64,000 nucleotides of DNA from an uncultured bacterium (GCA_964632485.1 CAZWDO010000018.1:1-64000); one strand, 5' to 3'. Shown: positions 36,402 through 59,692, counted from the first letter of the stretch. Notes: generated by a model from the sequence alone, not told the origin. Program-made: numbers and translations.

Positions 36402-36728
36402 TCAGTCTTCCAATAGAGGCAATAACCGGTTCGCCACCAGATCATGAATGCTTGAGGAGGGCTGGTAGAAACCATCCTGAATTTTGTTTCTTACTTCCTG
36501 CAACTTATCCTGTCGAACATCATTAATATCTTTAAGGTAAGCCATTGCCAATTTCATCGTTTGAATTTGATCAGAAAGCACTTTTCCTTTTTCTGAAATA
36601 TCGATTTGAACCGATTCAGGATTATTCTTGCCTGCAATTTCCGTTTTATTTCGGCTCACCGTCTCGGATTTGTTTTTTTGGTTCTTGTACTCTTTGAGAA
36701 AGAAAGAATTAACTGTTTCTATTTGCAT
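36402..36728 (-). CDS. flgM: Anti-sigma28 factor FlgM
   Basis: ESVQIDISEKG...DVRQDKLQEVRNKIQDGFY...VANRLL; flagellar context. Confidence 0.8.
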   Translation of the reverse strand: MQIETVNSFFLKEYKNQKNKSETVSRNKTEIAGKNNPESVQIDISEKGKVLSDQIQTMKLAMAYLKDINDVRQDKLQEVRNKIQDGFYQPSSSIHDLVANRLLPLLED

Positions 36729-37722: not shown

Positions 37723-38964
37723 TTATTTAAAGAGCGACAGTATATTCTGGGGAAGGAACATTGATTGCGCCATCATGGAGAGGCCGGACTGCTGCAAAAT
37801 TTGCAGAGTAGAAGATTGCAGTTGTTCTTTTGCGACATCGGCATCTTCGATACGGCTGGCCGCAGCGCGCACGTTCGTTTCAGCGGTAGCCAGAAAATCT
37901 TCTTTAAAGGAAAGACGCTGGCCCTTGGCGCCGACATTGGCCGTCATGTGGTTCACTTTTGTAATGGCCTGATCAATGATACTCATCGTTTCGATAGCAT
38001 TACCGTGATGCGACAAGTCCATCTTGGTAGCCTGGGCTCCGCGCACTTCAAAGGTTGTGGTCGCATTCGGCGTCAAGGCATACACTGGATTATCAGCATC
38101 GGTTGTATCCGGCGAATTGAAATCAATCTTTAAACCCTCGATCAAAGTGGTATTATTCGTCAATCCATTGGGATTGTTGGATTTTTGCTCATTGAGATAC
38201 AAATCGTTTAAATTAATTGTCTTTCGCCAGGTTGTTCCTCCTGCTACATTATAACCATTACTATCGAAATCGATTACAACATGCGAATTGGCTTTGTCAG
38301 TGCCAACATCCTGAAGCGTGCGGATACGATAGTATCCATTGGCGGCAATGGCCTTCGTATTTGAATTGAGGTCAATGCCGGCTACCGTCGTGTTGTTATC
38401 AATACTCAGATTGGTAACATCCCCAGCGCGAGAAGTTTCCCAACCCAACTGGCCGATTCCGATATCAGAGGCATAGAAACTATCCATGATATTGAAATTA
38501 GTGCGATCGGTATAATCAGGCCCGGTTTGGAAAAACTTGCTTTGGAAGGTTCCATCCAATAATTTTTGGGAACCCCAACGCGTAGTCTCCACTACCTGAT
38601 CAATTTCATCCGCTAACTCTTCAACGATTGATTGAATCTCAATCCGCTCATCCGAAGATAATGAATCATCGGCTGCCCGGGCGACATTCTTACGAACTTC
38701 TTCAATAAGTTTTGAAATATTGTTGGCGCCGCCTTCAGCCACGCCCAGCACATTGCGCGCATTTCCTACATTCTCGGAAGCAGAAGCCAAACCATCGGCC
38801 CGCACATTCAATTTTCGAGACAAAATAAAGCCGGCAGGATCATCGGCAGCCGCATTAATTCGCTTACCGGTGGACAATCGTTCCTGCGTAGCCGTCATCG
38901 ATTTCGTTGTGAAAAACAACGAATTATAAGCTTTAAGCGCGGAAACATTCGTGTTTATACGCAT
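37723..38964 (-). CDS. fliC: Flagellin
   Basis: MRINTNVSAL, ERLSTGKRINAAADDPAG, AAASRIEDADVAKE, ILQQSG; AGGAGG RBS. Confidence 0.96.
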   Translation of the reverse strand: MRINTNVSALKAYNSLFFTTKSMTATQERLSTGKRINAAADDPAGFILSRKLNVRADGLASASENVGNARNVLGVAEGGANNISKLIEEVRKNVARAADDSLSSDERIEIQSIVEELADEIDQVVETTRWGSQKLLDGTFQSKFFQTGPDYTDRTNFNIMDSFYASDIGIGQLGWETSRAGDVTNLSIDNNTTVAGIDLNSNTKAIAANGYYRIRTLQDVGTDKANSHVVIDFDSNGYNVAGGTTWRKTINLNDLYLNEQKSNNPNGLTNNTTLIEGLKIDFNSPDTTDADNPVYALTPNATTTFEVRGAQATKMDLSHHGNAIETMSIIDQAITKVNHMTANVGAKGQRLSFKEDFLATAETNVRAAASRIEDADVAKEQLQSSTLQILQQSGLSMMAQSMFLPQNILSLFK

Positions 38965-39064
38965 TTTAACTCCTCCTGAATTCATGAGTTAACTAACCTG
39001 TTAACCTTACGGTAGACTTTAGACCTTACACCAGACGTTAATTCTTTTCGACCTTCTATTATTT

Positions 39065-39091
39065 ATATCGACAGATCAAGGAGTTACTTTA
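39065..39091 (-). promoter_or_regulatory. sigma28 (FliA) promoter of flagellin TAAA-N15-GTCGATAT
   Basis: Matches TAAA-N15-GCCGATAA consensus, about 100 nt upstream of fliC. Confidence 0.85.
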
Positions 39092-39106: not shown

Positions 39107-39529
39107 TTAGACTAATTTTTTTTTTAAATCGTTGATTTCATAAAACAGATAAAACTTTACCGGATAATGGTCCTGGAGAATTTTTTGCCCCCCCCAGCGA
39201 TTATAGCGATTGATAAAAAGCGGCATGCGCAAGTTCAACGAAATCAATTCAATTTCATCGGGTATGCTTACCAAAACAAAGAGTTCCAAGTCATCCGGAG
39301 AAATCAGATCGATTTTATCCTTTTCTTCAGCGGTTAACGCAATATCATATTCATAAAGAACGATATGAGGATTGAGCAATAGAAAAAACAATCCCTGTTG
39401 CTCCAGGCTGATTAGATAATAATAGGGGGAATCCCCGACGGATTGGAAAAGATAAAAATAGCGGAATTGGGGATATCCAATCACACCATCAGGGAAGTAG
39501 TACACACGCTGAAAATCATTAAAGAGCAT
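39107..39529 (-). CDS. fliW: Flagellar assembly factor FliW
   Basis: FPDGVIGY...LISLE...FLLLNP...SLNLRMPLFIN...GGQKIL. Confidence 0.88.
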   Translation of the reverse strand: MLFNDFQRVYYFPDGVIGYPQFRYFYLFQSVGDSPYYYLISLEQQGLFFLLLNPHIVLYEYDIALTAEEKDKIDLISPDDLELFVLVSIPDEIELISLNLRMPLFINRYNRWGGQKILQDHYPVKFYLFYEINDLKKKLV

Positions 39530-44557: not shown

Positions 44558-45140
44558 TTAAAATAACCAGTTGAATAAACATGTAATCAAACCGGCNNNN
44601 NNNNNNTTTTGCTCCATCGTACATGGCGCCTTGCCCTTTATAACTGATCTCAACGTTGGCAAGTTTCGTTGAGGAAACGGTATTATTGGCGCCAATATCG
44701 TCGGGTCGCACTTCGCCGGAGATATTAATCAACTCTTCTTCACCATTGATCATTAATTTTTTAGTGCCTTCAATCTGAAAATTTCCATTTTCCATCACTT
44801 TCAGGATTTTTGCGGTAATTGTGGTCTGGATACTGCCACTTTTAGCGGTAGTACCGCTCCCTTTATAGCTATTGTCCCATTTAGTTCCTGCGCCAAATTC
44901 ACCCACAGCTCCGCTCCAGCCGCCGATTCCGGGGCCCACCGAAAAATTTGTCCCTTGTTGGGTTGAGGAATTATTGGCCGTGGAATTTTGCGCATTGGCC
45001 TGCTCGGAAACGACGATTGTCACCAAATCGTTCACTTGGCGGGCTTTATTGTCCGAAAACATATAATAAAGCGGACGGTTTCCCTGCGCATTTAAAACAA
45101 GAACAAAACTTACGATATTTAAAAAAATAAACCGTTTCAT
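44558..45140 (-). CDS. flgH: Flagellar L-ring protein (spans assembly gap)
   Basis: FSDNKARQVNDLVTIVVSE, NGNFQIEG, ISGEVRPDDI..NNTVSS.KLAN; after the N gap the frame AGLITCLFNWLF-stop (44558) fits the FlgH C-terminus. Confidence 0.9.
44597..44606. other. Assembly gap (10 N)
   Basis: Run of N in the sequence. Confidence 1.
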
Positions 45141-47646: not shown

Positions 47647-47662
47647 TGCAATATATATGCCA
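47647..47662 (-). promoter_or_regulatory. sigma54 promoter TGGCATATATATTGCA of the flgF operon
   Basis: Full TGGCAY-N5-TTGCA consensus 35 nt upstream of flgF. Confidence 0.85.
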
Positions 47663-47754: not shown

Positions 47755-48549
47755 TTACAGAGAAAATTTTGCCCGGCCAAATTGCATGAAAAAGCGTTTA
47801 ATTTTATTGGTAATAAAGGAGGTCTGATGACGATCCATCTCTTTAATCACATTTAAAATTTTCGGATCATACAATTTTTCCAGAATCACTAAAAGTTTAA
47901 ATTTTTGAGCCTGGGAAGAAATTTCCCAAATTTTACTTAAATAGGATAATCCTTCAAAATCAAAATATTTAGTCAAAAGAGTCAGAACAAATTCGCTGAC
48001 ATCGCTATCCGGGTCATTGCAAGCGCCCAGCAGATGAAGGAGATTCCGGGCGCTTTTACGCGGAAACAAAGATTTTGCAGCCGCCATCCGAACAAATTTA
48101 TTGTCAGAATCAGTCATCCGCTCAATCAAAGCCTTCGTCGGCAAATTACGGGTAATAATATCCACTTCAATATTGATATAACGGGATGCAGGAGGCCTTT
48201 TCCAATCATCCCTCTCACTACCGGTTGTTTTAGTTGCCTCAGGATGAGGCTGGAAGCCCCTGGATTCAACGGGATTTGCCCCCCCGGCCAATGGGGCCGC
48301 CGGATAAGAAGCAGTGTGATATGGGTCCGTCTGGTAACGCTCATGAACGATCACATCAGACCGTAAGGAAAGCTCTCTCAAAATCTGATAGGCTTCCTGA
48401 ATCTCTTTAAAGCGGACTATATGGTTGGTATTTTGAGCGCACACATCAGGATGATAGATATGGACATATTGCCGATAGGCCTTCTTAACCATATCAAAAG
48501 GGGAATTGGGAGGCAACCGCAAAACTTTATAACAAGTCTCGTAATTCAT
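47755..48549 (-). CDS. J-domain protein with C-terminal HEAT-like repeats
   Basis: CYKVL...VKKAYRQ..HIYHPD...FKEIQEAYQIL; SDNKFVRMAAAKSL...CNDPDSDV. Confidence 0.85.
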   Translation of the reverse strand: MNYETCYKVLRLPPNSPFDMVKKAYRQYVHIYHPDVCAQNTNHIVRFKEIQEAYQILRELSLRSDVIVHERYQTDPYHTASYPAAPLAGGANPVESRGFQPHPEATKTTGSERDDWKRPPASRYINIEVDIITRNLPTKALIERMTDSDNKFVRMAAAKSLFPRKSARNLLHLLGACNDPDSDVSEFVLTLLTKYFDFEGLSYLSKIWEISSQAQKFKLLVILEKLYDPKILNVIKEMDRHQTSFITNKIKRFFMQFGRAKFSL

Positions 48550-48552
48550 GGG

Positions 48553-50406
48553 TTACTCCTTTTGCTCCAATATCTCCAAGTCCTCGGGAGAAAGGCTGGG
48601 ATCGCCGTTTTTTTCAATCTTTACCTTCTCATCACCATTAATATCAACGCCAATAGATTCAGCACCAGGTCGTTCCCGTACATCATCGAATTGCTGCAAA
48701 ATGGATTGCGTCGTTTCCACCATAGCGCCAAGATTTTCCATGTCTTCCCGTTCTTTGTATTTTTGCAATTCACCCAACGCTTCTTTTAAATCAATCAACA
48801 GAGATGCATGCGATTCAGTCAAATCCTTTTCCTGGCACAGAAAAAGAAGATCATTTCCTTCCAGCAGCAGACCCTCAGCTTTATTCGTCAGATTCAGTTT
48901 CATCAGCCATTGCCGATCCTGCTCTTCATAACGGTTCGCTTCTTCCACCATGTGCTTGATCTCTTCCGGAGAAAGACCTGAGGCGTCTTTAATGATGATG
49001 GTTTGTTTTACATTCGTATCCAGGTCTTTAGCGGAAACATGCAAAATCCCATCTACATCAACATCGAAAGTCACCTCGACACGGGGTTCCCCTTTGCGAC
49101 TATTCCTAATCCCGGTCAATTGGAAATTTCCTAAAAACTTATTGGCAATTGCGAGTTTACGCTCCCCCTGGTAGATTTTTACTTCCACCATTTCCTGGTC
49201 ATCGGAAATGGTTGTGAAGAGCTTAGTCTTGCTGACTGGAATGGGGGTGTTCCGATCGATAATCGGTACGAATCCTCCCCCTTCCACTTCGATACCCAAC
49301 GCCATGGGGATGACATCAACCAGGACTATTCCCTTGGTAGTTCCCTTGATTATCGCTGATTGAATGGCAGCTCCCAGAGCAACGCATTCATCGGGATTGA
49401 TATTTTTATATAATTCCTTTTTAGTGATCTGAGCAATTTTATCCTGAAAAACCGGGATGCGAGTAGTTCCCCCTACTAATAGAACCTTGTCAATCTGGTC
49501 AACTGAAAGTTTCGCATCTTTTAAGGCAATTTTTGCCGGTTCCTCGATAGCTTCAACCAAATCTTTAATCAAATTCTCAAAAAGACTGCGGGAAATCTTC
49601 ATTTCCAGGTGCCGGGGTCCTTTTTCAGTAGCGGTGATGAAGGGAATACTCAACTGAGTGATCGGTGATTCAGAAAGTTCAATCTTGGCTTTTTCAACTT
49701 CTTCCAATAATCGTTGCAAGGCCATTCGGTCCTGCTTCAAGTCGAGTTTTTCTTTTTTTTTATATTCCTCGATCACATAGTTTAGAAGCCGCTGATCCAA
49801 ATCATCGCCTCCGAGGTGATTGTTTCCGGAAGTGGCAAGCACTTGAAAAACGCCATTGCCAATTTCCAGAATTGAAACATCATAGGTCCCCCCACCAATA
49901 TCATATACCATCACAATTTGCTCTTCAGTGTCTTTTAAACCATAAGCCAGAGCGGCGGCAGTCGGTTCATTAACAATGCGTAGCACCTCAATTCCGGCGA
50001 TTTTACCGGCATTGATTGTTGCCTGACGCTGGGCATCGTTAAAATAGGACGGAACCGTGATAACCGCCTGTTTTACATCACAACCGAGATACTCTTCCGC
50101 ATCTTTTTTTAATTTCCGCAAAATCAGCGCCGAGATTTCTTCCGGTGAATATTTTTTGGCATCAATAGTGATCTGATTTTTAGTTCCCATCGCCCTTTTT
50201 ATTGAACTGATCGTACGGGAGCTATTAATAATGGCCTGATTTTTAGCGGCCTGACCCACTAATATCTCCCCTTCTTTAGAAAAAGCGACGACAGACGGCG
50301 TCAAACGACCTCCCCGATTATTGGGAACGATTTGAGGCGTATTGCCTTCAAAGACGGCTACCACGGAATTCGTTGTACCTAAATCTATACCAATAACTTT
50401 CTGCAT
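48553..50406 (-). CDS. dnaK: Hsp70/DnaK family chaperone (probable paralog)
   Basis: IGIDLGTTNS, TVPSYFNDAQRQAT, NEPTAAALAYG, LVGGTTRIP, NPDECVALGAA, YQGER. Confidence 0.92.
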   Translation of the reverse strand: MQKVIGIDLGTTNSVVAVFEGNTPQIVPNNRGGRLTPSVVAFSKEGEILVGQAAKNQAIINSSRTISSIKRAMGTKNQITIDAKKYSPEEISALILRKLKKDAEEYLGCDVKQAVITVPSYFNDAQRQATINAGKIAGIEVLRIVNEPTAAALAYGLKDTEEQIVMVYDIGGGTYDVSILEIGNGVFQVLATSGNNHLGGDDLDQRLLNYVIEEYKKKEKLDLKQDRMALQRLLEEVEKAKIELSESPITQLSIPFITATEKGPRHLEMKISRSLFENLIKDLVEAIEEPAKIALKDAKLSVDQIDKVLLVGGTTRIPVFQDKIAQITKKELYKNINPDECVALGAAIQSAIIKGTTKGIVLVDVIPMALGIEVEGGGFVPIIDRNTPIPVSKTKLFTTISDDQEMVEVKIYQGERKLAIANKFLGNFQLTGIRNSRKGEPRVEVTFDVDVDGILHVSAKDLDTNVKQTIIIKDASGLSPEEIKHMVEEANRYEEQDRQWLMKLNLTNKAEGLLLEGNDLLFLCQEKDLTESHASLLIDLKEALGELQKYKEREDMENLGAMVETTQSILQQFDDVRERPGAESIGVDINGDEKVKIEKNGDPSLSPEDLEILEQKE

Positions 50407-53506: not shown

Positions 53507-53764
53507 TGTATCCTCGATATCGCGAACCTGCTATTTTCTATATAAAATAGATATTACATAGAAATTGCATTTAAATTTGCTGAACATCCCGAATACCAGG
53601 CAGAAAGAACATTCTTCAAGAAACCCTGTGGATAATGCTGTGTCCGAACATAATGCTCTTATACCTGAAGTGTGCAGACTTTTCATTAAATCTGTCCCTT
53701 ACCTGCGATTTTCAGGTTTTACATTAATATAACCTAAAAAAAAAAATATCAAGAAAAAAAACAC

Positions 53765-53797
53765 AAAAAAAAGCCCCGGAACGTGCCGGGGCTTTTT
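53765..53797 (-). terminator. Intrinsic terminator after the giant secreted-protein gene
   Basis: AAAAGCCCCGG-AACGTG-CCGGGGCTTTT with A/T tracts on both sides. Confidence 0.85.
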
Positions 53798-53843: not shown

Positions 53844-56800
53844 TTATTTCAGCAAGAGCATTTTCTTAGTCTTGTTGAACTTACCTGTTTCAATCTGATA
53901 GAAATAAACGCCTGCGGCAACAGATCGACCCTTATCATTAGTGCCATTCCATGTCATGGAATAGTTGCCGGCGGCCTTACGTTCGTCAACTAAAGTTTTT
54001 ACTAATTCTCCCGCGATATTGTATATCTTGAGAGTAATTTTAGCATCTTCGGGTAAGGCGAAATGAATTTCAGTGGACGGATTGAACGGATTCGGATAGT
54101 TCTGGGCTAAATCGTAGGTTTTGGGCAGACCCAGCTTGGCCAAATAGTGTCCATCCACACGGAAAGCCTCTTCACGAACCAATTCGTTCTTGCCGTTGAA
54201 GTATTGATAATTGAAAACCCAATCGGAAGTGACATCGCTCTTAGCGCGCAGATAAACGCGGGCAATGACGCCGGAACCGTTCAGAATCGAACGATTTTGG
54301 GCAAAGCGAGTCGCTGCCAAATCCAATTGTCCCAAAGTCATGTCCTTGAACAATGCACTGCTGGCGCTGCCGCGGCTCATGAAATCTTTTTCCTCAACCA
54401 TCGCCACTTCGATTTCATCACTATTGAAATCCAATATAGCGCGAACGATACTTAAATCCTCAACCTTGTTGGCATAGATGTCAAAAACCGCTTCCTGACC
54501 ATCGGTTAATTTACCTGAAACATAGCGGAATTGAATCGGTGATTCAGCGTTGACCTCATAAGCCAGAGCAGCTCCTTCTTTCTTCAGCAAGGTATTGCTC
54601 GGATTGAAACCGCGGAACCAGGAATACATCTCGCCAAAGGTGATGACATCATCGGGTTCCCACTTACAATCGGGACGGGCAAACAAGTAAGGAGCGCGAA
54701 GACCGCTCTTCCACGAGAATGACGGGAAAATATCCGCCACAGGGTCCTGATAGCCCAGGTTGTTGTCAACGAAACCATTCCAACCGAAGACATAAGCCAG
54801 GACATCTTCATTGTCAATGCGTCCGTCCGGATCGGGAATCATATTCGGCGCCGGATAATTGCGATAGAAGTTGTTATAATAGTTGGCGCTGGCAATATCG
54901 CCCAACATAACCATGAACAAGGAGGCGCCTTTCCAATCCTTTACTTCGAGCGTGTCATAGATATTGTTGCCATTCTTGATATTGCGAATCATTAGGCTAT
55001 TGCTGGTATTGATTGTAATACCCTGATACGCAGTACCCGGATCCGATTTCTTATAACGCGCGGAATTAGGCTGGGTTTTATCATCCGTATTAATACCGGT
55101 CGTATCGACGCGGTAACTGATACGGGCCAAAGCGCCCGAGCACATAATTCCTTCGTTAGTAGCCGGAAACTTGACCACACCGGAAATGGCAAACATACCG
55201 GTACTATTGATTTGTTCAACAGAGGGCGTGAAATAGAATTCATACGCTTCTCCGCCAATATTGCCGAGCGCGTCGCCGGCGACAATATCAACGATTTCAA
55301 TAATCGAGGTATCAAAAGTAGCTTCCACATTGACGTATATAATCTTGTCGGGATTTTCCAGATAAACAAGAATATTACGCAAATCCTCGCCACCCTGTCC
55401 CTGGCCTTCACCTTCGTACACCAGGATGATCGAATCACCGGGTTCTCCCTGGCAATTGTAGTCGGAGAGGAATTTGATGGTGGGACGGCTATCATTGATA
55501 ATCAGGGATTGTGTAGAATAATCGCTGCCGTTTTGGCCGTACTTGTCTAAGATAACACCCAACAAGTAACCGGTATCCGGTACAACCATGCCGGATGTGG
55601 TACTGGGCATCCAGGAGTAGGTACCATTACCACCGGTTGGAGCCGCGATACCACTCTCGATCAACAAGCAGTTGGAAAGAGAGGAAGTATCGGTAGGGGC
55701 AAAGTAGAAACCGACAGTAGCAGTTGCCAATTCATCGTCGGTAACGGAGTAATTGAAGCTGAATGCGCTTTCTGGATGACGATAGATATAGTTACCGCCG
55801 CCGCAGGAACCTCCACCGGTAAGACTCAGTGTAATGGTCGGAACCTGATTGGAGATGCCTTCGAGCTTGGTTATGCGTCCGCTATTGGACCCGCCCCAAT
55901 CGGCAACATAGAGATCGATTTTCTGGCCGCCGAAACCCACGCCATTAACACCTGTGCCGGTAGTATAGAGGCCACGATGCTGGGCCCGTTCGCCAACCAC
56001 GGCGCAAACATCGGTCGGACGGTAGAACTGTCCGAGTTCGGTTCCCGTGCCGCCCAGTTCGATAAATTTTTCCGGAACCGTAGTTAAAGCGGGATTCAAG
56101 GCTTGTTCGTCGCGGAAGACGATGACTTTGTCATGGCTGTAATCGGCCACATAGACATAAACATCCGATGAATCCACGATATTGGTGTTCTTGAAATACT
56201 TGCCAACAGAAATCGATACCGGATCGAGTCCCTGTCCGAATTTACTCTGGTAGCGGAACTTGTAAGACCAGCCCGCATTTTCGTCCCAGGTATATTTCTT
56301 TACTACGGAATGACCGCGATCGCCGACATAAACATCGACCAGACCGGTAATGTCATTATATCGCGCGGCGATACCCGTAGGTTGCGAAATTTGTCCCGAA
56401 GCGCCTGAAGTACTGTCCGCATAGGTATTGTCAAAGACAAACATATCCGGGCAGGGATAGTAGGCAATCTTGGCGGTCCAGTTGGTACCCTTGGCCGGTT
56501 TGCGTCCATGCACGCCGTTACCGAAGAGCAAACGGCCGCCGCCATATTCCGTATAGGCATCGGTAGTTGTGAATGAACCATCAGGATCGGCGAAGCGGTT
56601 GAGTTCATAAGCGCCGGTATCGCCGACCACTGTCAGATTGGCCACGCGCACCCATTCTTCCTGGTCCTCAAATGTACCATCGGCATCTTCATCCACCCAA
56701 ACCGTCGGCCATTCTACTACGGAGAAGGATTGTTCATGACGGTTGAAATAAATCTGCTGATTGATGCTATCGCCGGAGAGAGTATAAGTGATTGTATCCG

Positions 56801-58301
56801 GGAAGAAGGAAAGACGCGAACCGCCGCGCGCTGTACGGTGATTGTGATGCCATTGAATAATGGCCGCATCTCCCTGGGTTTCAATATCATCATAGGGCCC
56901 GGTACGATCGGGATAATTGGCCAGGTTATAAATCGTGCCAATTCCCATTTCCGCATCAATACCGATACTGCCATTGATAACGCGAATTTTGCCGGAACCG
57001 GCTTCCGTTAAGAAGATACGGATACTATCCGTCACTGTATAAGATGTATAGGCATTATCAACAGTAGTCGTGAAACGCACTCCCTGGTCACTGTTACGGG
57101 CGCTGATGACCGAAATCGCGGTAGGATTGCTTAAAGAGCCGCGATAACGCTGGGCCTGTGTGATCGACAAACTGGTGAAACTGTTGTCGTATTTCGCCCA
57201 GGAATAGTTAAAGAGGTAAGACGAATCATCAGGCGGGGCCGTGTCCAGGCCATAGATATTAATGTATTGGTTAGCATTGGCTCCGGTATTGTAGCGTTTC
57301 AGCACTTCAATATCTGAGATGCGTCCCCAATAATCAAAGAAACCACGCTGCAACGCGGTGGTCGGCATGGGGCCGTAAGTACCCGCCGGGGTCGGAGCCA
57401 GTATGGACACCTGGCTTGTATCACGTTGCATATCATCATAAATGTAGCCACCGTAGCGTACGCCCGGATCGATGATATCCGTAGCCTTGTCGGACGAAAG
57501 TACGCATTCGACCAATAGATACTGCGAACTATCCAGATCGCGTAACGTAACCAAGCCACTACCATAATCTATTGCATAGCATTTTGCAGTAGAAGGCAGA
57601 GCGGCCAGCGCCGTCTCATTCGCCACGCGGGACCATTTGCTCCCCGCCACTTTAACGATTTCCGAATTGGGAATCACGTCCCAACTATTCAAATTAACGC
57701 CGCCGGTGACCAAACCGCCACCTGCCACATAAATCTGAGCGGTCGGATAGGTTCCACCGGTATAATTAATGTCCAGGCTATCGAGAAATGGTGTCTGAGG
57801 ACTATCCACCGAATCGAGCACCACCCGCACAAAATGGGGTTCAAAAATTTTGATATCACGCGCCACACCATCCGCAACTAACGCTACATAGGCGCGGGTC
57901 GTATCGGCGGTTGTGGTTGTAATTGCTCCAGCATTGCTCTGGATCAAACCCAGCGAGGTATCCACAAAGACCGCGATACCCAAGGCTGATTCCAGCGCCC
58001 GCGGGCGGTAATGGACATCAGACAGTTCGGAAGCCGAAGTGGTTCCTTCTGCCGATCCTGAGTTAGTTCCGTCATTGTACCCAGGAGTCTCCTGGTGCTT
58101 TGCACGGACTTCTTTCATATCGGGACGATTTCCCGACAATACATTATAATTCAACCCGTCCCACCATCCGGTATAACGATACACCAGGGGTTGGCGAGGG
58201 GTATTATTCAGGCTTTGACCCTGCATCATCAGCAAGGGTACGCCGACTATCATGAGCCCGAATATCACTATCAGCGCTATTTTTATTTTTTTGGACTTCA
58301 T
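53844..58301 (-). CDS. 1485-aa secreted protein: NHL-like repeats, cohesin-like/dockerin-like/cohesin-like modules, T9SS type-A (FlgD-Ig) CTD
   Basis: N-terminal signal; QPTGIA, GQFYRPTDV, YVAD repeats; GD...PDGRIDNEDV...ADI..PDCKWEPDDV; LAQNYPNPFNPST...KIYNIAGELVKTL...GVYFYQI...KKMLLLK; AAGGAGG RBS. Confidence 0.85.
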   Translation of the reverse strand: MKSKKIKIALIVIFGLMIVGVPLLMMQGQSLNNTPRQPLVYRYTGWWDGLNYNVLSGNRPDMKEVRAKHQETPGYNDGTNSGSAEGTTSASELSDVHYRPRALESALGIAVFVDTSLGLIQSNAGAITTTTADTTRAYVALVADGVARDIKIFEPHFVRVVLDSVDSPQTPFLDSLDINYTGGTYPTAQIYVAGGGLVTGGVNLNSWDVIPNSEIVKVAGSKWSRVANETALAALPSTAKCYAIDYGSGLVTLRDLDSSQYLLVECVLSSDKATDIIDPGVRYGGYIYDDMQRDTSQVSILAPTPAGTYGPMPTTALQRGFFDYWGRISDIEVLKRYNTGANANQYINIYGLDTAPPDDSSYLFNYSWAKYDNSFTSLSITQAQRYRGSLSNPTAISVISARNSDQGVRFTTTVDNAYTSYTVTDSIRIFLTEAGSGKIRVINGSIGIDAEMGIGTIYNLANYPDRTGPYDDIETQGDAAIIQWHHNHRTARGGSRLSFFPDTITYTLSGDSINQQIYFNRHEQSFSVVEWPTVWVDEDADGTFEDQEEWVRVANLTVVGDTGAYELNRFADPDGSFTTTDAYTEYGGGRLLFGNGVHGRKPAKGTNWTAKIAYYPCPDMFVFDNTYADSTSGASGQISQPTGIAARYNDITGLVDVYVGDRGHSVVKKYTWDENAGWSYKFRYQSKFGQGLDPVSISVGKYFKNTNIVDSSDVYVYVADYSHDKVIVFRDEQALNPALTTVPEKFIELGGTGTELGQFYRPTDVCAVVGERAQHRGLYTTGTGVNGVGFGGQKIDLYVADWGGSNSGRITKLEGISNQVPTITLSLTGGGSCGGGNYIYRHPESAFSFNYSVTDDELATATVGFYFAPTDTSSLSNCLLIESGIAAPTGGNGTYSWMPSTTSGMVVPDTGYLLGVILDKYGQNGSDYSTQSLIINDSRPTIKFLSDYNCQGEPGDSIILVYEGEGQGQGGEDLRNILVYLENPDKIIYVNVEATFDTSIIEIVDIVAGDALGNIGGEAYEFYFTPSVEQINSTGMFAISGVVKFPATNEGIMCSGALARISYRVDTTGINTDDKTQPNSARYKKSDPGTAYQGITINTSNSLMIRNIKNGNNIYDTLEVKDWKGASLFMVMLGDIASANYYNNFYRNYPAPNMIPDPDGRIDNEDVLAYVFGWNGFVDNNLGYQDPVADIFPSFSWKSGLRAPYLFARPDCKWEPDDVITFGEMYSWFRGFNPSNTLLKKEGAALAYEVNAESPIQFRYVSGKLTDGQEAVFDIYANKVEDLSIVRAILDFNSDEIEVAMVEEKDFMSRGSASSALFKDMTLGQLDLAATRFAQNRSILNGSGVIARVYLRAKSDVTSDWVFNYQYFNGKNELVREEAFRVDGHYLAKLGLPKTYDLAQNYPNPFNPSTEIHFALPEDAKITLKIYNIAGELVKTLVDERKAAGNYSMTWNGTNDKGRSVAAGVYFYQIETGKFNKTKKMLLLK

Positions 58302-58476
58302 TGTCTTTTCCTCCTTAGAACGGTTAAGACGACGGTTTTGCCCACGCCGGGCAAACTCTCGCTCGCGCCATGCACTTTCTGATCAACCTTCGTGTTTTAG
58401 GCCAAGGGCCTCCTTTCTTCTTTTCTTTCTATTCGTTTGTTCCTAAGTTTTTCGGTATAAGGTCGTCTAATTTATT

Positions 58477-58503
58477 AAATCGACCTGTTGGCCTAAAACT
58501 TTA
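58477..58503 (-). promoter_or_regulatory. sigma28 promoter TAAA-N15-GTCGATTT of the giant secreted-protein gene
   Basis: TAAAGT...GTCGAT with 15-nt spacer, matching the flagellin promoter; intergenic and correctly oriented. Confidence 0.75.
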
Positions 58504-58526: not shown

Positions 58527-59621
58527 TTATTGAAGATATACCGGAATCATCGCCGGCTCATAAATCTTGATCTGATTCTGAGCGGCATCCAGTAATTCAA
58601 ATGTATTAAAGGTTAAACTCGTCTCGCCAGCGGCCATCACTTTGAATTTCAGAACACACAAGGCCACCGCTCGACTATCAATATCCACATCTGTACCCAA
58701 AGGTTTATCCCCATCAAACTGAATAAGCCAGGTCGATACAAAACCCACCTTGCTGTTATCATAGCGGGGTTCTCTTAAACAATTAATTTTTTTGTAACGA
58801 GTATCTGTAAGTAGCGTACTATCCACTTTATCGATAAATTCCAGATAATTGCGATTAACATTGCAGATAAAACGCAGAGCAAACAAATCGGAAATATTGG
58901 TCAACTGGACCACTAAACTGATTGTATCTCCAACTTTACCCTGAACCGTTTCCGGATACAGGCTCAGACTACCCTTGTCTTTGGTATCAAAATAGTAATC
59001 ATCAGAAGTCGTCGAATGATTCCACTTCGTAGTCGAAATAACCCGGAAATGATACCGCTGATTCGGATCTAAATTAGCAAGACTCATATTATGTTCCAAA
59101 ACATAATAATCCAAATCCACAACATCCGAACCATAACCCGTCGTTTTACCATATTCAATCAGGCTGTTTGAAAGCTGATCCGTATCCCAGCCAATAATTG
59201 CCGACGAGGAAGTAACCGATAATACACGAATATTGGAAAGTACTGGTCCCTGAGTACTGGCAGCCAGTGTTGTGAATTCCTTCATCTCCGATTCTTTTTC
59301 AGTACCGGAAGAATCATGAGACACTACCTTATAATAATAAGTCGTATTCTCTGAAAGCCCTGTCAATGGCACCTGATGATCCTTAACCAGGGTCGAATTT
59401 TCTTGTGTGCTTCGATTCAATTGATTATCAGTACCATATACAACCTGCGACGTCGATTTCAAATTGGTTTTCCAGGTGATCACCGCCGCGTCTTCACTCT
59501 GCACACTCGAATTCACATTCGAAACTGACAACTGCTCGTCCGTGCGAACCGTGCCCATACTGCCACAAGCAACCACAAACGCAACAATTACTCCTGCCAG
59601 ATAGACGGGTATCCGATTCAT
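58527..59621 (-). CDS. Lipoprotein with two Fn3 (PAP-N-like) domains and C-terminal cohesin-like domain
   Basis: Lipobox VVA-C; two repeats of A.I.W.T...S.S.V.YG...H.V.L..L...T.YY..V.S; VGDTISLVVQLTNISDLFALRF...LCVLKFKVMAAGETSLTF; AGGAGG RBS. Confidence 0.85.
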   Translation of the reverse strand: MNRIPVYLAGVIVAFVVACGSMGTVRTDEQLSVSNVNSSVQSEDAAVITWKTNLKSTSQVVYGTDNQLNRSTQENSTLVKDHQVPLTGLSENTTYYYKVVSHDSSGTEKESEMKEFTTLAASTQGPVLSNIRVLSVTSSSAIIGWDTDQLSNSLIEYGKTTGYGSDVVDLDYYVLEHNMSLANLDPNQRYHFRVISTTKWNHSTTSDDYYFDTKDKGSLSLYPETVQGKVGDTISLVVQLTNISDLFALRFICNVNRNYLEFIDKVDSTLLTDTRYKKINCLREPRYDNSKVGFVSTWLIQFDGDKPLGTDVDIDSRAVALCVLKFKVMAAGETSLTFNTFELLDAAQNQIKIYEPAMIPVYLQ

Positions 59622-59676: not shown

Positions 59677-59692
59677 TGCACCTTTTATGCCA
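59677..59692 (-). promoter_or_regulatory. sigma54 promoter TGGCATAAAAGGTGCA
   Basis: GG-N10-GC spacing, TGGCAT and TGCA, 56 nt upstream of the lipoprotein start. Confidence 0.65.

Follow-up and report, generated by a model that had tools for sequence, protein, structure and literature searches.

Why should the gene of a very large surface protein, one with a type IX secretion system (T9SS) sorting signal at its C-terminus, stand at the head of a flagellar gene cluster behind a promoter of the kind found before flagellin? The question is raised by positions 53844–58503 of a 64,000-nucleotide stretch of DNA from an uncultured bacterium (GCA_964632485.1, CAZWDO010000018.1:1-64000), which we refer to as the window. 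It is G000:C18:1-64000 of a draft genome (G000; 4.45 Mb, 43.8% G+C, 66 contigs) that we compared with a genome of the same family (G001) and one of the same order (G002), the completeness of the three being 92–98%. Gene calls in G000 were crude and are called crude genes throughout. The gene in question, here the giant gene (P0001; 53844–58301, minus strand), encodes an orphan surface protein of 1485 amino acids (aa). From these comparisons, we regard it as reasonably likely that the giant gene of this small, uncultured lineage is transcribed singly, that it belongs to the late class of the flagellar regulon, and that its product is exported by a T9SS-like route. Its expression probably coincides with that of the flagellar filament. 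FliA acting at the promoter, gating by FlgM, secretion and function are the parts of this reading that we infer, and promoter use appears well supported by the comparison between genomes.

The evidence that carries this reading is the promoter motif. Sigma-28 promoters follow the consensus TAAAGTTT-N11-GCCGATAA, with a −35 element TAAA(GTTT) and a −10 element (G)CCGATA(A) placed 11 nt apart. A site of this type, TAAAGTTT-N11-GTCGATTT, lies upstream of the giant gene at 58477–58503 (minus strand) and was identified by matrix scanning and by conservation. The site used for comparison, TAAAGTAA-N11-GTCGATAT at 39065–39091 (minus strand), belongs to the flagellin gene of the cluster, located at 37723–38964, and is kept in G001 and G002. 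An earlier note on this DNA had pointed to the likeness of the two sites, and it held for both blocks as well as for the N11 spacing. Across G000, TAAAGT-N15-CGAT occurs 23 times (6 outside crude genes), compared with 8, 7, 8, 5, 10 and 15 occurrences at N12, N13, N14, N16, N17 and N18, of which 0–3 were outside genes at each spacing.

Two matrices from which the giant site was excluded gave similar results. The first was built from five other G000 sites and applied to the 300-nt regions that precede 3136 crude genes; the giant site scored 18.8 and ranked sixth of the 3136 upstream regions, with the seventh at 16.9. Eight shuffles of all upstream regions returned 0, 0, 1, 0, 0, 0, 0 and 0 matches at the score of the giant site (~0.1 expected per genome), so that the frequency of the motif, which the earlier note had wanted to see compared with chance, is not at chance level. 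The second matrix combined the flagellin promoters of the three genomes with four G000 sites and placed the giant site (19.3) at rank 7–8 of all genome positions on both strands. Five of its eight top sites belonged to the training set, and the other non-training sites were C3:172051 (inside a gene) and C2:138155. The sites before flgN and flgM that the earlier note had also counted are weak, and neither reached a score of 13 in the window scan.

Conservation of the site and of gene order, to which the earlier note had looked for confirmation, was found in both other orthologous lineages. The motif stands at −202 (G000), −198 (G001) and −176 (G002) from the ATG. TAAAGTTTT and GTCGAT are identical in the three genomes, whereas the spacer has diverged and is invariant in 1 of 10 columns. 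The orthologous sites of G001 and G002 score 23.0, which is the maximum of the matrix, and each is the single best site in its locus (19.5 and 19.9 kb, respectively). A metagenome contig (L107) carries the same promoter as G002 in near-identical upstream DNA, and the upstream DNA of another (L106) is too short; the conservation count is accordingly G001 and G002, i.e., two of the two lineages with upstream DNA. A promoter of this type also precedes the cluster flagellin in all three genomes, and a comparable sigma-28 site was absent upstream of the three paralogue loci described below.

The flagellar cluster itself occupies ~36.4–53.5 kb on the minus strand, with the giant gene directly upstream of it, as the earlier note had stated. 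It encodes a FlgM-like protein, FlaG, FliS, flagellin, FliW and FlgL, K, N, J, I, H, A, G and F, in addition to a DnaJ-domain protein, Hsp70, MotB, MotA and FapA; the genes for FapA, MotA, MotB and FlgF–N follow directly downstream of the giant gene. The order FN3 lipoprotein, giant, fapA, (motAB), dnaK, dnaJ and flgF onward is kept in the three genomes, and motAB is gone from that position in G001. The genes for Hsp70 (617 aa) and the DnaJ-domain protein (264 aa) lie at 47755–50406 (minus strand) between motB and flgF, as they do in G001 and G002. Inside flgH, 10 consecutive N occupy positions 44597–44606 of the window.

The family is confined to this setting in the collections that we searched. 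Matches to the giant protein were detected in 27 of 61 genomes, mostly to its C-terminal domain (CTD) alone, and full-length matches were limited to G000, G001 (61% identity) and G002 (57%). Each of these three genomes also has a paralogue that is 31–36% identical from approximately residue 580 onward. A search of 5.8 billion clustered proteins, with 7999 candidates scored, recovered three that cover the full length at 55–59% identity and one distant homologue, P0005 (64% coverage, 26% identity). A profile of residues 95–640 matched its own cluster alone among 1.84 billion representatives. The orthologue was found in three metagenome contigs that repeat G001-like and G002-like sequences and in two genome loci, of which one bears the title Candidatus Delongbacteria bacterium. 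Full-length homologues were limited to genomes in which the gene heads the same flagellar cluster, and the homologues in non-flagellated genomes that would have spoken against the earlier note did not appear.

Is the motif read by FliA? The genome encodes FliA, as the earlier note had expected (TIGR02479, 265.4 bits vs. a cut-off of 189.6), at G000:C7:149424-150095, behind flhA, flhF and flhG. It is conceivable that the motif is instead read by another alternative sigma factor or DNA-binding protein, or that it is a chance look-alike kept for some other reason. Three observations lean that way: the link to FliA in this lineage is drawn from sequence alone; five weaker sigma-70-family matches to the FliA model were found in G000; and no strong sigma-28 site precedes the classical late genes flgM, flgK/L and motAB in the window scan, which makes the predicted regulon unusual. 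Nonetheless, the motif has the textbook sigma-28 consensus and spacing, the best of its remaining copies stand before flagellin in all three genomes, its enrichment is confined to the canonical spacing, and only ~0.1 such sites are expected by chance per genome. On balance, we consider a reader other than FliA to be very improbable.

Late (class III) flagellar promoters are read by FliA/sigma-28 or SigD, examples being the promoters of enterobacterial fliC and of hag in Bacillus subtilis. Our locus resembles these in its −35 and −10 blocks, its 11-nt gap, the promoter type of the cluster flagellin, and the presence of fliA and a candidate flgM-like gene. It differs in that the gene putatively driven is neither flagellar nor involved in chemotaxis and in that flgM, flgKL and motAB are without a strong site in the window. 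Non-flagellar passengers of sigma-28 are also familiar, such as the "flagellar coexpressed determinants" of Campylobacter jejuni and the SigD-dependent autolysins of B. subtilis. PdeH of Escherichia coli is a FliA-dependent non-flagellar gene as well, according to one report (PMC12422006). In these cases, and putatively in ours, expression of a non-structural gene is timed to coincide with filament assembly through a sigma-28 promoter; what differs here is that the passenger is a large, CTD-bearing orphan surface protein with a T9SS-like route.

The remaining top sigma-28-type sites of G000 (G000:C16:14082, C29:18313, C6:88767 and C8:90793; loci L096–L098 and L101) precede genes for a flagellinolysin-like HExxH protein (379 aa), an SprA-related PF12118 protein (193 aa), a 61-aa open reading frame (ORF) and a 491-aa protein without a family. 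The HExxH protein reached 64.8 bits with the flagellinolysin model, below the cut-off of 205. By eye, its orthologues are preceded by near-consensus sites with one −35 mismatch each, which the search pattern missed. The site before the SprA-related gene recurs in G001, and the gene was not found in G002 with the query used. Comparison by tblastn of the proteins of the regulon with those loci of G001 and G002 that the pattern had hit returned nothing. The predicted late regulon would thus be compact and unusual, consisting of flagellin, a flagellinolysin-like protease, an SprA-related protein, a few unknowns and the giant protein.

Other sites of this type were noted in passing. A perfect one (23.0) lies at G000:C7:158431 (plus strand; locus L103) between fliO and fliP, on the strand opposite to them, where FliA might drive an antisense or small transcript within the operon of the export gate. 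Two further T9SS cargo genes, G000:C17:20396-29995 and G000:C12:46716-49715, stand behind weaker sigma-28-like sites whose gap is 12 nt; they encode a 3199-aa cadherin-like protein and a 999-aa dockerin/FN3 protein that adjoins the paralogue of the giant gene.

Is the giant gene a transcription unit of its own? A Shine-Dalgarno (SD) sequence, AAGGAGG, is located at 58310–58316 (minus strand), 8 nt 5′ of the ATG, and AAGGAGGAA is unchanged across the three aligned genomes. Downstream, an intrinsic terminator at 53765–53797 (minus strand) forms a 12-pair stem with 7 G-C pairs followed by a T run; a terminator occupies the corresponding place 3′ of both orthologues (G001 and G002) and has another stem sequence there. 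After it, we noticed by eye a putative sigma-70-like promoter, CTTGAT-N16-TATATT (53726–53753, minus strand), for fapA and the flagellar genes downstream, and a similar CTTGAT...TATATT element in the same position relative to the terminator in all three genomes. A sigma-70-type promoter for fapA on the 3′ side of the giant terminator is therefore likely. Given that the terminator and the gene's own promoter are both conserved, we delimit the unit as promoter, ~170-nt leader, gene and terminator. The terminator, the strong SD sequence, the ORF, the promoter motif and the sorting domain all lie where the earlier note had placed them.

This reading has to be weighed against a number of observations that concern, in turn, the control region, the export route and the body of the protein. 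In the control region, the −10 element of the G000 giant site ends in TTT, whereas the other strong sites end in ATA or ATC, and this is why it scores 18.8–19.3 compared with 23.0 in its relatives. The FlgM-like anti-sigma-28 gene (36402–36728, minus strand; 108 aa) matched TIGR03824 with 33.5 bits, under the cut-off of 40.75. Furthermore, there are only three independent lineages, such that the conservation footprint rests on few sequences. Finally, 23 nt separate the upstream stop codon from the −35 element of the giant site, with no terminator in between.

The upstream gene (58527–59621, minus strand) encodes a lipoprotein of 364 aa from its ATG, with two FN3-like domains and a cohesin-like C-terminus assigned with Pfam (cohesin E 0.0024, 18.5 bits vs. 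a cut-off of 24.1); its lipobox Cys19 is invariant and the gene adjoins the giant gene in the three genomes. A sigma-54-type site, TGGCAT-N5-GTGCA, precedes it at 59677–59692 (minus strand; also in L057 at 15914 and L058 at 16116) and is likewise kept in all three. Because no terminator separates the two genes and this conserved site stands upstream, read-through from the sigma-54-type promoter could feed, or even dominate, transcription of the giant gene. The giant gene might then be mainly the second gene of a two-gene operon, with the sigma-28-like motif as a minor or weak internal promoter. The short distance without a terminator, the retained sigma-54-type site, the conserved gene pair and the fact that other large T9SS cargo genes in G000 also stand behind sigma-54-type sites would all be consistent with such an operon. 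However, the hexamers are perfectly kept around a divergent spacer, and conservation extends into a long leader, a combination which we argue points to a selected and used promoter. In addition, contigs from RNA libraries touch the giant ORF and none lies on the upstream gene, a weak hint only, as missing cover is not evidence. We therefore regard the operon as unlikely to be the main source of the transcript, noting that the two explanations are compatible with each other.

Sigma-54-type sites number 120 in G000 (42 of them outside crude genes), and several precede other very large T9SS cargo genes (C3:94519, 209127 and 217004). One was also observed before the flgF rod operon (window 47647–47662, minus strand) and is kept in G001 and G002. 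A second flagellin gene (G000:C5:64087-65328, minus strand; G001:C62 and G002:C7; L091–L093), whose product is 67–70% identical to the cluster flagellin, has a sigma-54-type site, TGGYAT-N5-(A/T)TGCA, in place of the sigma-28 site in all three genomes. Two flagellin genes with different types of site resemble a two-flagellin, two-sigma arrangement.

With regard to expression level, the earlier note had described the giant gene as richer in C-ending codons than its neighbors, and this is the case: its C-ending codon fraction (C3) is 0.319 (92.7th percentile of 2717 crude genes), compared with 0.139 for fapA and 0.130 for the upstream gene. The abundance of the product that the note had proposed was not supported. 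The codon adaptation index of the giant gene relative to 25 ribosomal-protein genes is 0.722 (78.5th percentile), which is level with the upstream gene (78.8) and below fapA (88.1), and codon bias in G000 is weak. Moreover, the genes of highest C3 include a block at G000:C19:17698-34916 (C3 of 0.47–0.54) that contains a phage portal gene and is probably a prophage, making C3 a poor guide to expression level. Codon use was consequently discarded as a sign of abundance. Short, error-free pieces of the ORF (≥99% identity) were present in contigs of two metatranscriptomic runs (X4 and X5) from one study. These runs consist of contigs only, without readable start, strand or level, and leave the leader uncovered, a gap that carries no weight in either direction.

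Which route would take the protein to the cell surface? By eye, from the translation and the alignment of orthologues, the N-terminus is a signal peptide of ~29 residues with a hydrophobic core (58215–58301, minus strand); the hydrophobic stretch is kept in the orthologues, which show an Ala-Gln junction. At the other end, residues 1402–1481 (53859–54098, minus strand) form a type-A T9SS sorting domain, with the motif NYPNPFNP beginning at residue 1401. This domain, the kind of tail that the earlier note had taken for a T9SS sorting signal, scores over the cut-off with PF18962 (Por_Secre_tail; 32 bits vs. 27) and TIGR04183 (40.6 bits vs. 23). PF13860 overlaps it (46.2 bits at residues 1411–1471). 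Only this Ig-like part of FlgD is matched; FlgD equivalog models gave at most 30 bits vs. cut-offs of at least 230, and the giant protein was rejected as a hook-capping FlgD. The tail of the PorU model matched 50 places in G000, all CTD-bearing frames that include the giant gene, which indicates that CTD-bearing proteins are numerous in this genome.

The earlier note had named sprA, porV and porU as genes that the genome should contain. SprA (592.7 bits summed over one 1984-aa frame) and PorU (638.3 bits vs. 420) are over their cut-offs in G000, but the best PorV-like match, directly beside porU and one of 21 such matches, reached 145 bits vs. a cut-off of 250. The search for motor proteins covered GldK, GldL and GldM in the three genomes. 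GldK matches were at most 88 bits vs. a cut-off of 350. GldL was not found, with one match in G000 at E 0.006 and none in G001 or G002. GldM was not found in G000–G002 either, and its one candidate (E 0.0036) was rejected as a chemoreceptor by Pfam. The sorting domain, SprA and PorU thus speak for the route that the note had proposed, whereas the motor proteins GldL and GldM were not found in the three genomes and GldK is below its cut-off; we therefore call the route "T9SS-like". Its motor may be strongly divergent, or it may have none of the Bacteroidota type.

Type-A CTD cargo of the Bacteroidota T9SS includes the gingipains and SprB-type adhesins. The giant protein shares with such cargo the signal peptide, a CTD over the cut-offs, and SprA and PorU in the same genome, and differs in that GldL and GldM were not found, in having no known body domain, and in the location of its gene in a flagellar cluster with which it is probably co-regulated. 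Our searches found no paper that links FliA/sigma-28 to T9SS cargo, in line with the earlier note, which had stated that no flagellum-T9SS coupling is described. As far as regulation is concerned this stands. The co-occurrence of flagella with Por-CTD enzymes in one organism is nevertheless in print for Melioribacter roseus (PMC3534657). What is new here would be the regulatory coupling only, i.e., a T9SS-type surface protein as a conserved sigma-28 passenger, which is undescribed in the literature that we searched.

What could the protein do? Its body gives few clues, and these too detract from our reading. No body domain exceeded any library cut-off, Pfam was empty up to E = 5, and the library matches are confined to the C-terminus. 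AlphaFold models of residues 95–830 and 821–1400, built from three-sequence alignments, were discarded as unusable (predicted local distance difference test scores of 31.5 and 43.0). A PDB profile search returned FlgD Ig-like chains at the CTD only (E of at least 0.02), and an ESM Atlas search of the body returned no usable match. The function that we propose consequently leans on weak similarity to the single distant homologue, P0005. The Pfam cohesin domain of P0005 (E 8.5e-11) aligns with giant residues ~1280–1390, its NHL-like stretch with ~640–815 and its dockerin-like stretch with ~1150–1230. In this respect the giant protein is similar to cohesin/dockerin scaffolds, given the aligned cohesin and dockerin-like regions of P0005 and the sub-threshold cohesin of the neighboring lipoprotein. 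It differs from them in that cohesin (PF00963) and dockerin (PF00404) found no match in the giant protein itself up to E = 5. These alignments would be consistent with a binding role at the cell surface, perhaps paired with the upstream lipoprotein, and the role as a sheath or adhesin suggested in the earlier note is pure conjecture.

The protein could also be a part or accessory of the flagellum (sheath, outer-membrane collar or filament-associated component) that is delivered outside the flagellar channel by the T9SS-like route, rather than a general adhesin. Such a role would fit the constant location of the gene, which leads the cluster with fapA and motAB as neighbors in the three genomes, and likewise a late-class promoter like that of flagellin, the restriction of the family to a flagellated lineage and the location of the paralogue elsewhere without the promoter. 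Its sole flagellar domain, however, is the FlgD-Ig-like fold that many T9SS CTDs match (the 50 places in G000 mentioned above), and with the fold models having failed, the proposal has no structural or localization basis. We view an accessory of this kind as rather unlikely, and favor a surface protein that would be co-expressed with the filament.

Does the leader add to the coupling with flagellin? The 5′ leader of the giant transcript (58302–58476, minus strand) would be ~168–170 nt long if transcription starts 7–9 nt after the −10 element, and contains blocks that are conserved in the three-genome alignment. The first of these, the 12-nt GACCTTAYACCG (58453–58464, minus strand), corresponds, in reverse complement, to a repeated element of the flagellin leader that reads GGTGTAAGGTC at 39022–39032 (minus strand). 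The GTGTAAGGT-like repeat is present in two to three copies in the flagellin leaders of all three genomes (loci L057, L058, L089 and L090 were compared). Complementary runs between the two leaders were tested against 1000 shuffles each. The longest run was 15 nt in G002 (reached by 0 of 1000 shuffles), 10 nt in G001 (8 of 1000) and 12 nt with two G-U pairs in G000 (18 of 1000), where the Watson-Crick-only run of 7 nt was not significant. When 3157 upstream regions of G000 were ranked, the leader of flagellin came within the top 22 by run length and within the top 6 by duplex energy. The energy of the whole-leader duplex between giant and flagellin did not differ from that of shuffles (z of −0.8, +0.2 and −1.5), the consensus fold of the giant leader was weak (−0.67 kcal/mol), and no Rfam family was found in the leaders (three sub-threshold matches lay elsewhere). 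The complementarity may reflect RNA pairing, a DNA site shared in both orientations, or a coincidence resembling SD/anti-SD sequences.

FliW is encoded beside the flagellin gene (window 39107–39529, minus strand), and CsrA (PF02599) was detected in none of the three genomes. FliW's usual partner thus seems to be missing in this lineage, and CsrA sites in the leaders were dropped from consideration on that ground. Small RNAs (sRNAs) of C. jejuni, the RpoN-dependent CJnc230 and the FliA-dependent CJnc170, tune flagellar genes according to one study (PMC11187230). They provide a precedent for RNA cross-talk among hierarchically expressed flagellar transcripts; the candidate pairing element here differs in being an mRNA 5′ leader and not a separate sRNA, and is a sequence observation. 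A bolder proposal would be that two export machines serve one organelle program, with the T9SS-like route delivering a lineage-specific outer flagellar component or partner under the timing of the checkpoint sigma factor. In addition, pairing of the giant leader with the GUGUAAGGU repeats in the leader of the flagellin mRNA might couple both late transcripts post-transcriptionally, with FliW present and no CsrA detected. This proposal is highly speculative, and we give it little credence.

The sequence of events that we favor can be outlined as follows. RNA polymerase with FliA would start at TAAAGTTT-N11-GTCGAT after a FlgM-like anti-sigma factor has been exported through the finished hook-basal body; owing to this gating, we propose, the giant protein would be made together with the cluster flagellin. 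The ~170-nt leader and the strong SD sequence would then support translation of a Sec-exported protein of 1485 aa, and its type-A CTD would pass it to the SprA/PorV/PorU part of a T9SS-like pathway for display on the cell surface. There, with its orphan N-terminal half, NHL-like propeller, dockerin-like stretch and cohesin-like module, it would most likely serve the motile cell in binding or adhesion, perhaps in partnership with the neighboring FN3/cohesin-like lipoprotein.

A few non-flagellar passengers are known from sigma-28 regulons, and the type IX route has been studied almost only in non-flagellated, gliding Bacteroidota. If confirmed, our finding would, for the first time, connect flagellar assembly with type IX-like export at the level of regulation. 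For the orphan family, it provides a testable context, as the giant protein is expected when the filament is made. A lineage that combines a compact predicted sigma-28 regulon with FliW in the absence of CsrA could, moreover, be informative about the control of late flagellar genes beyond the model phyla.

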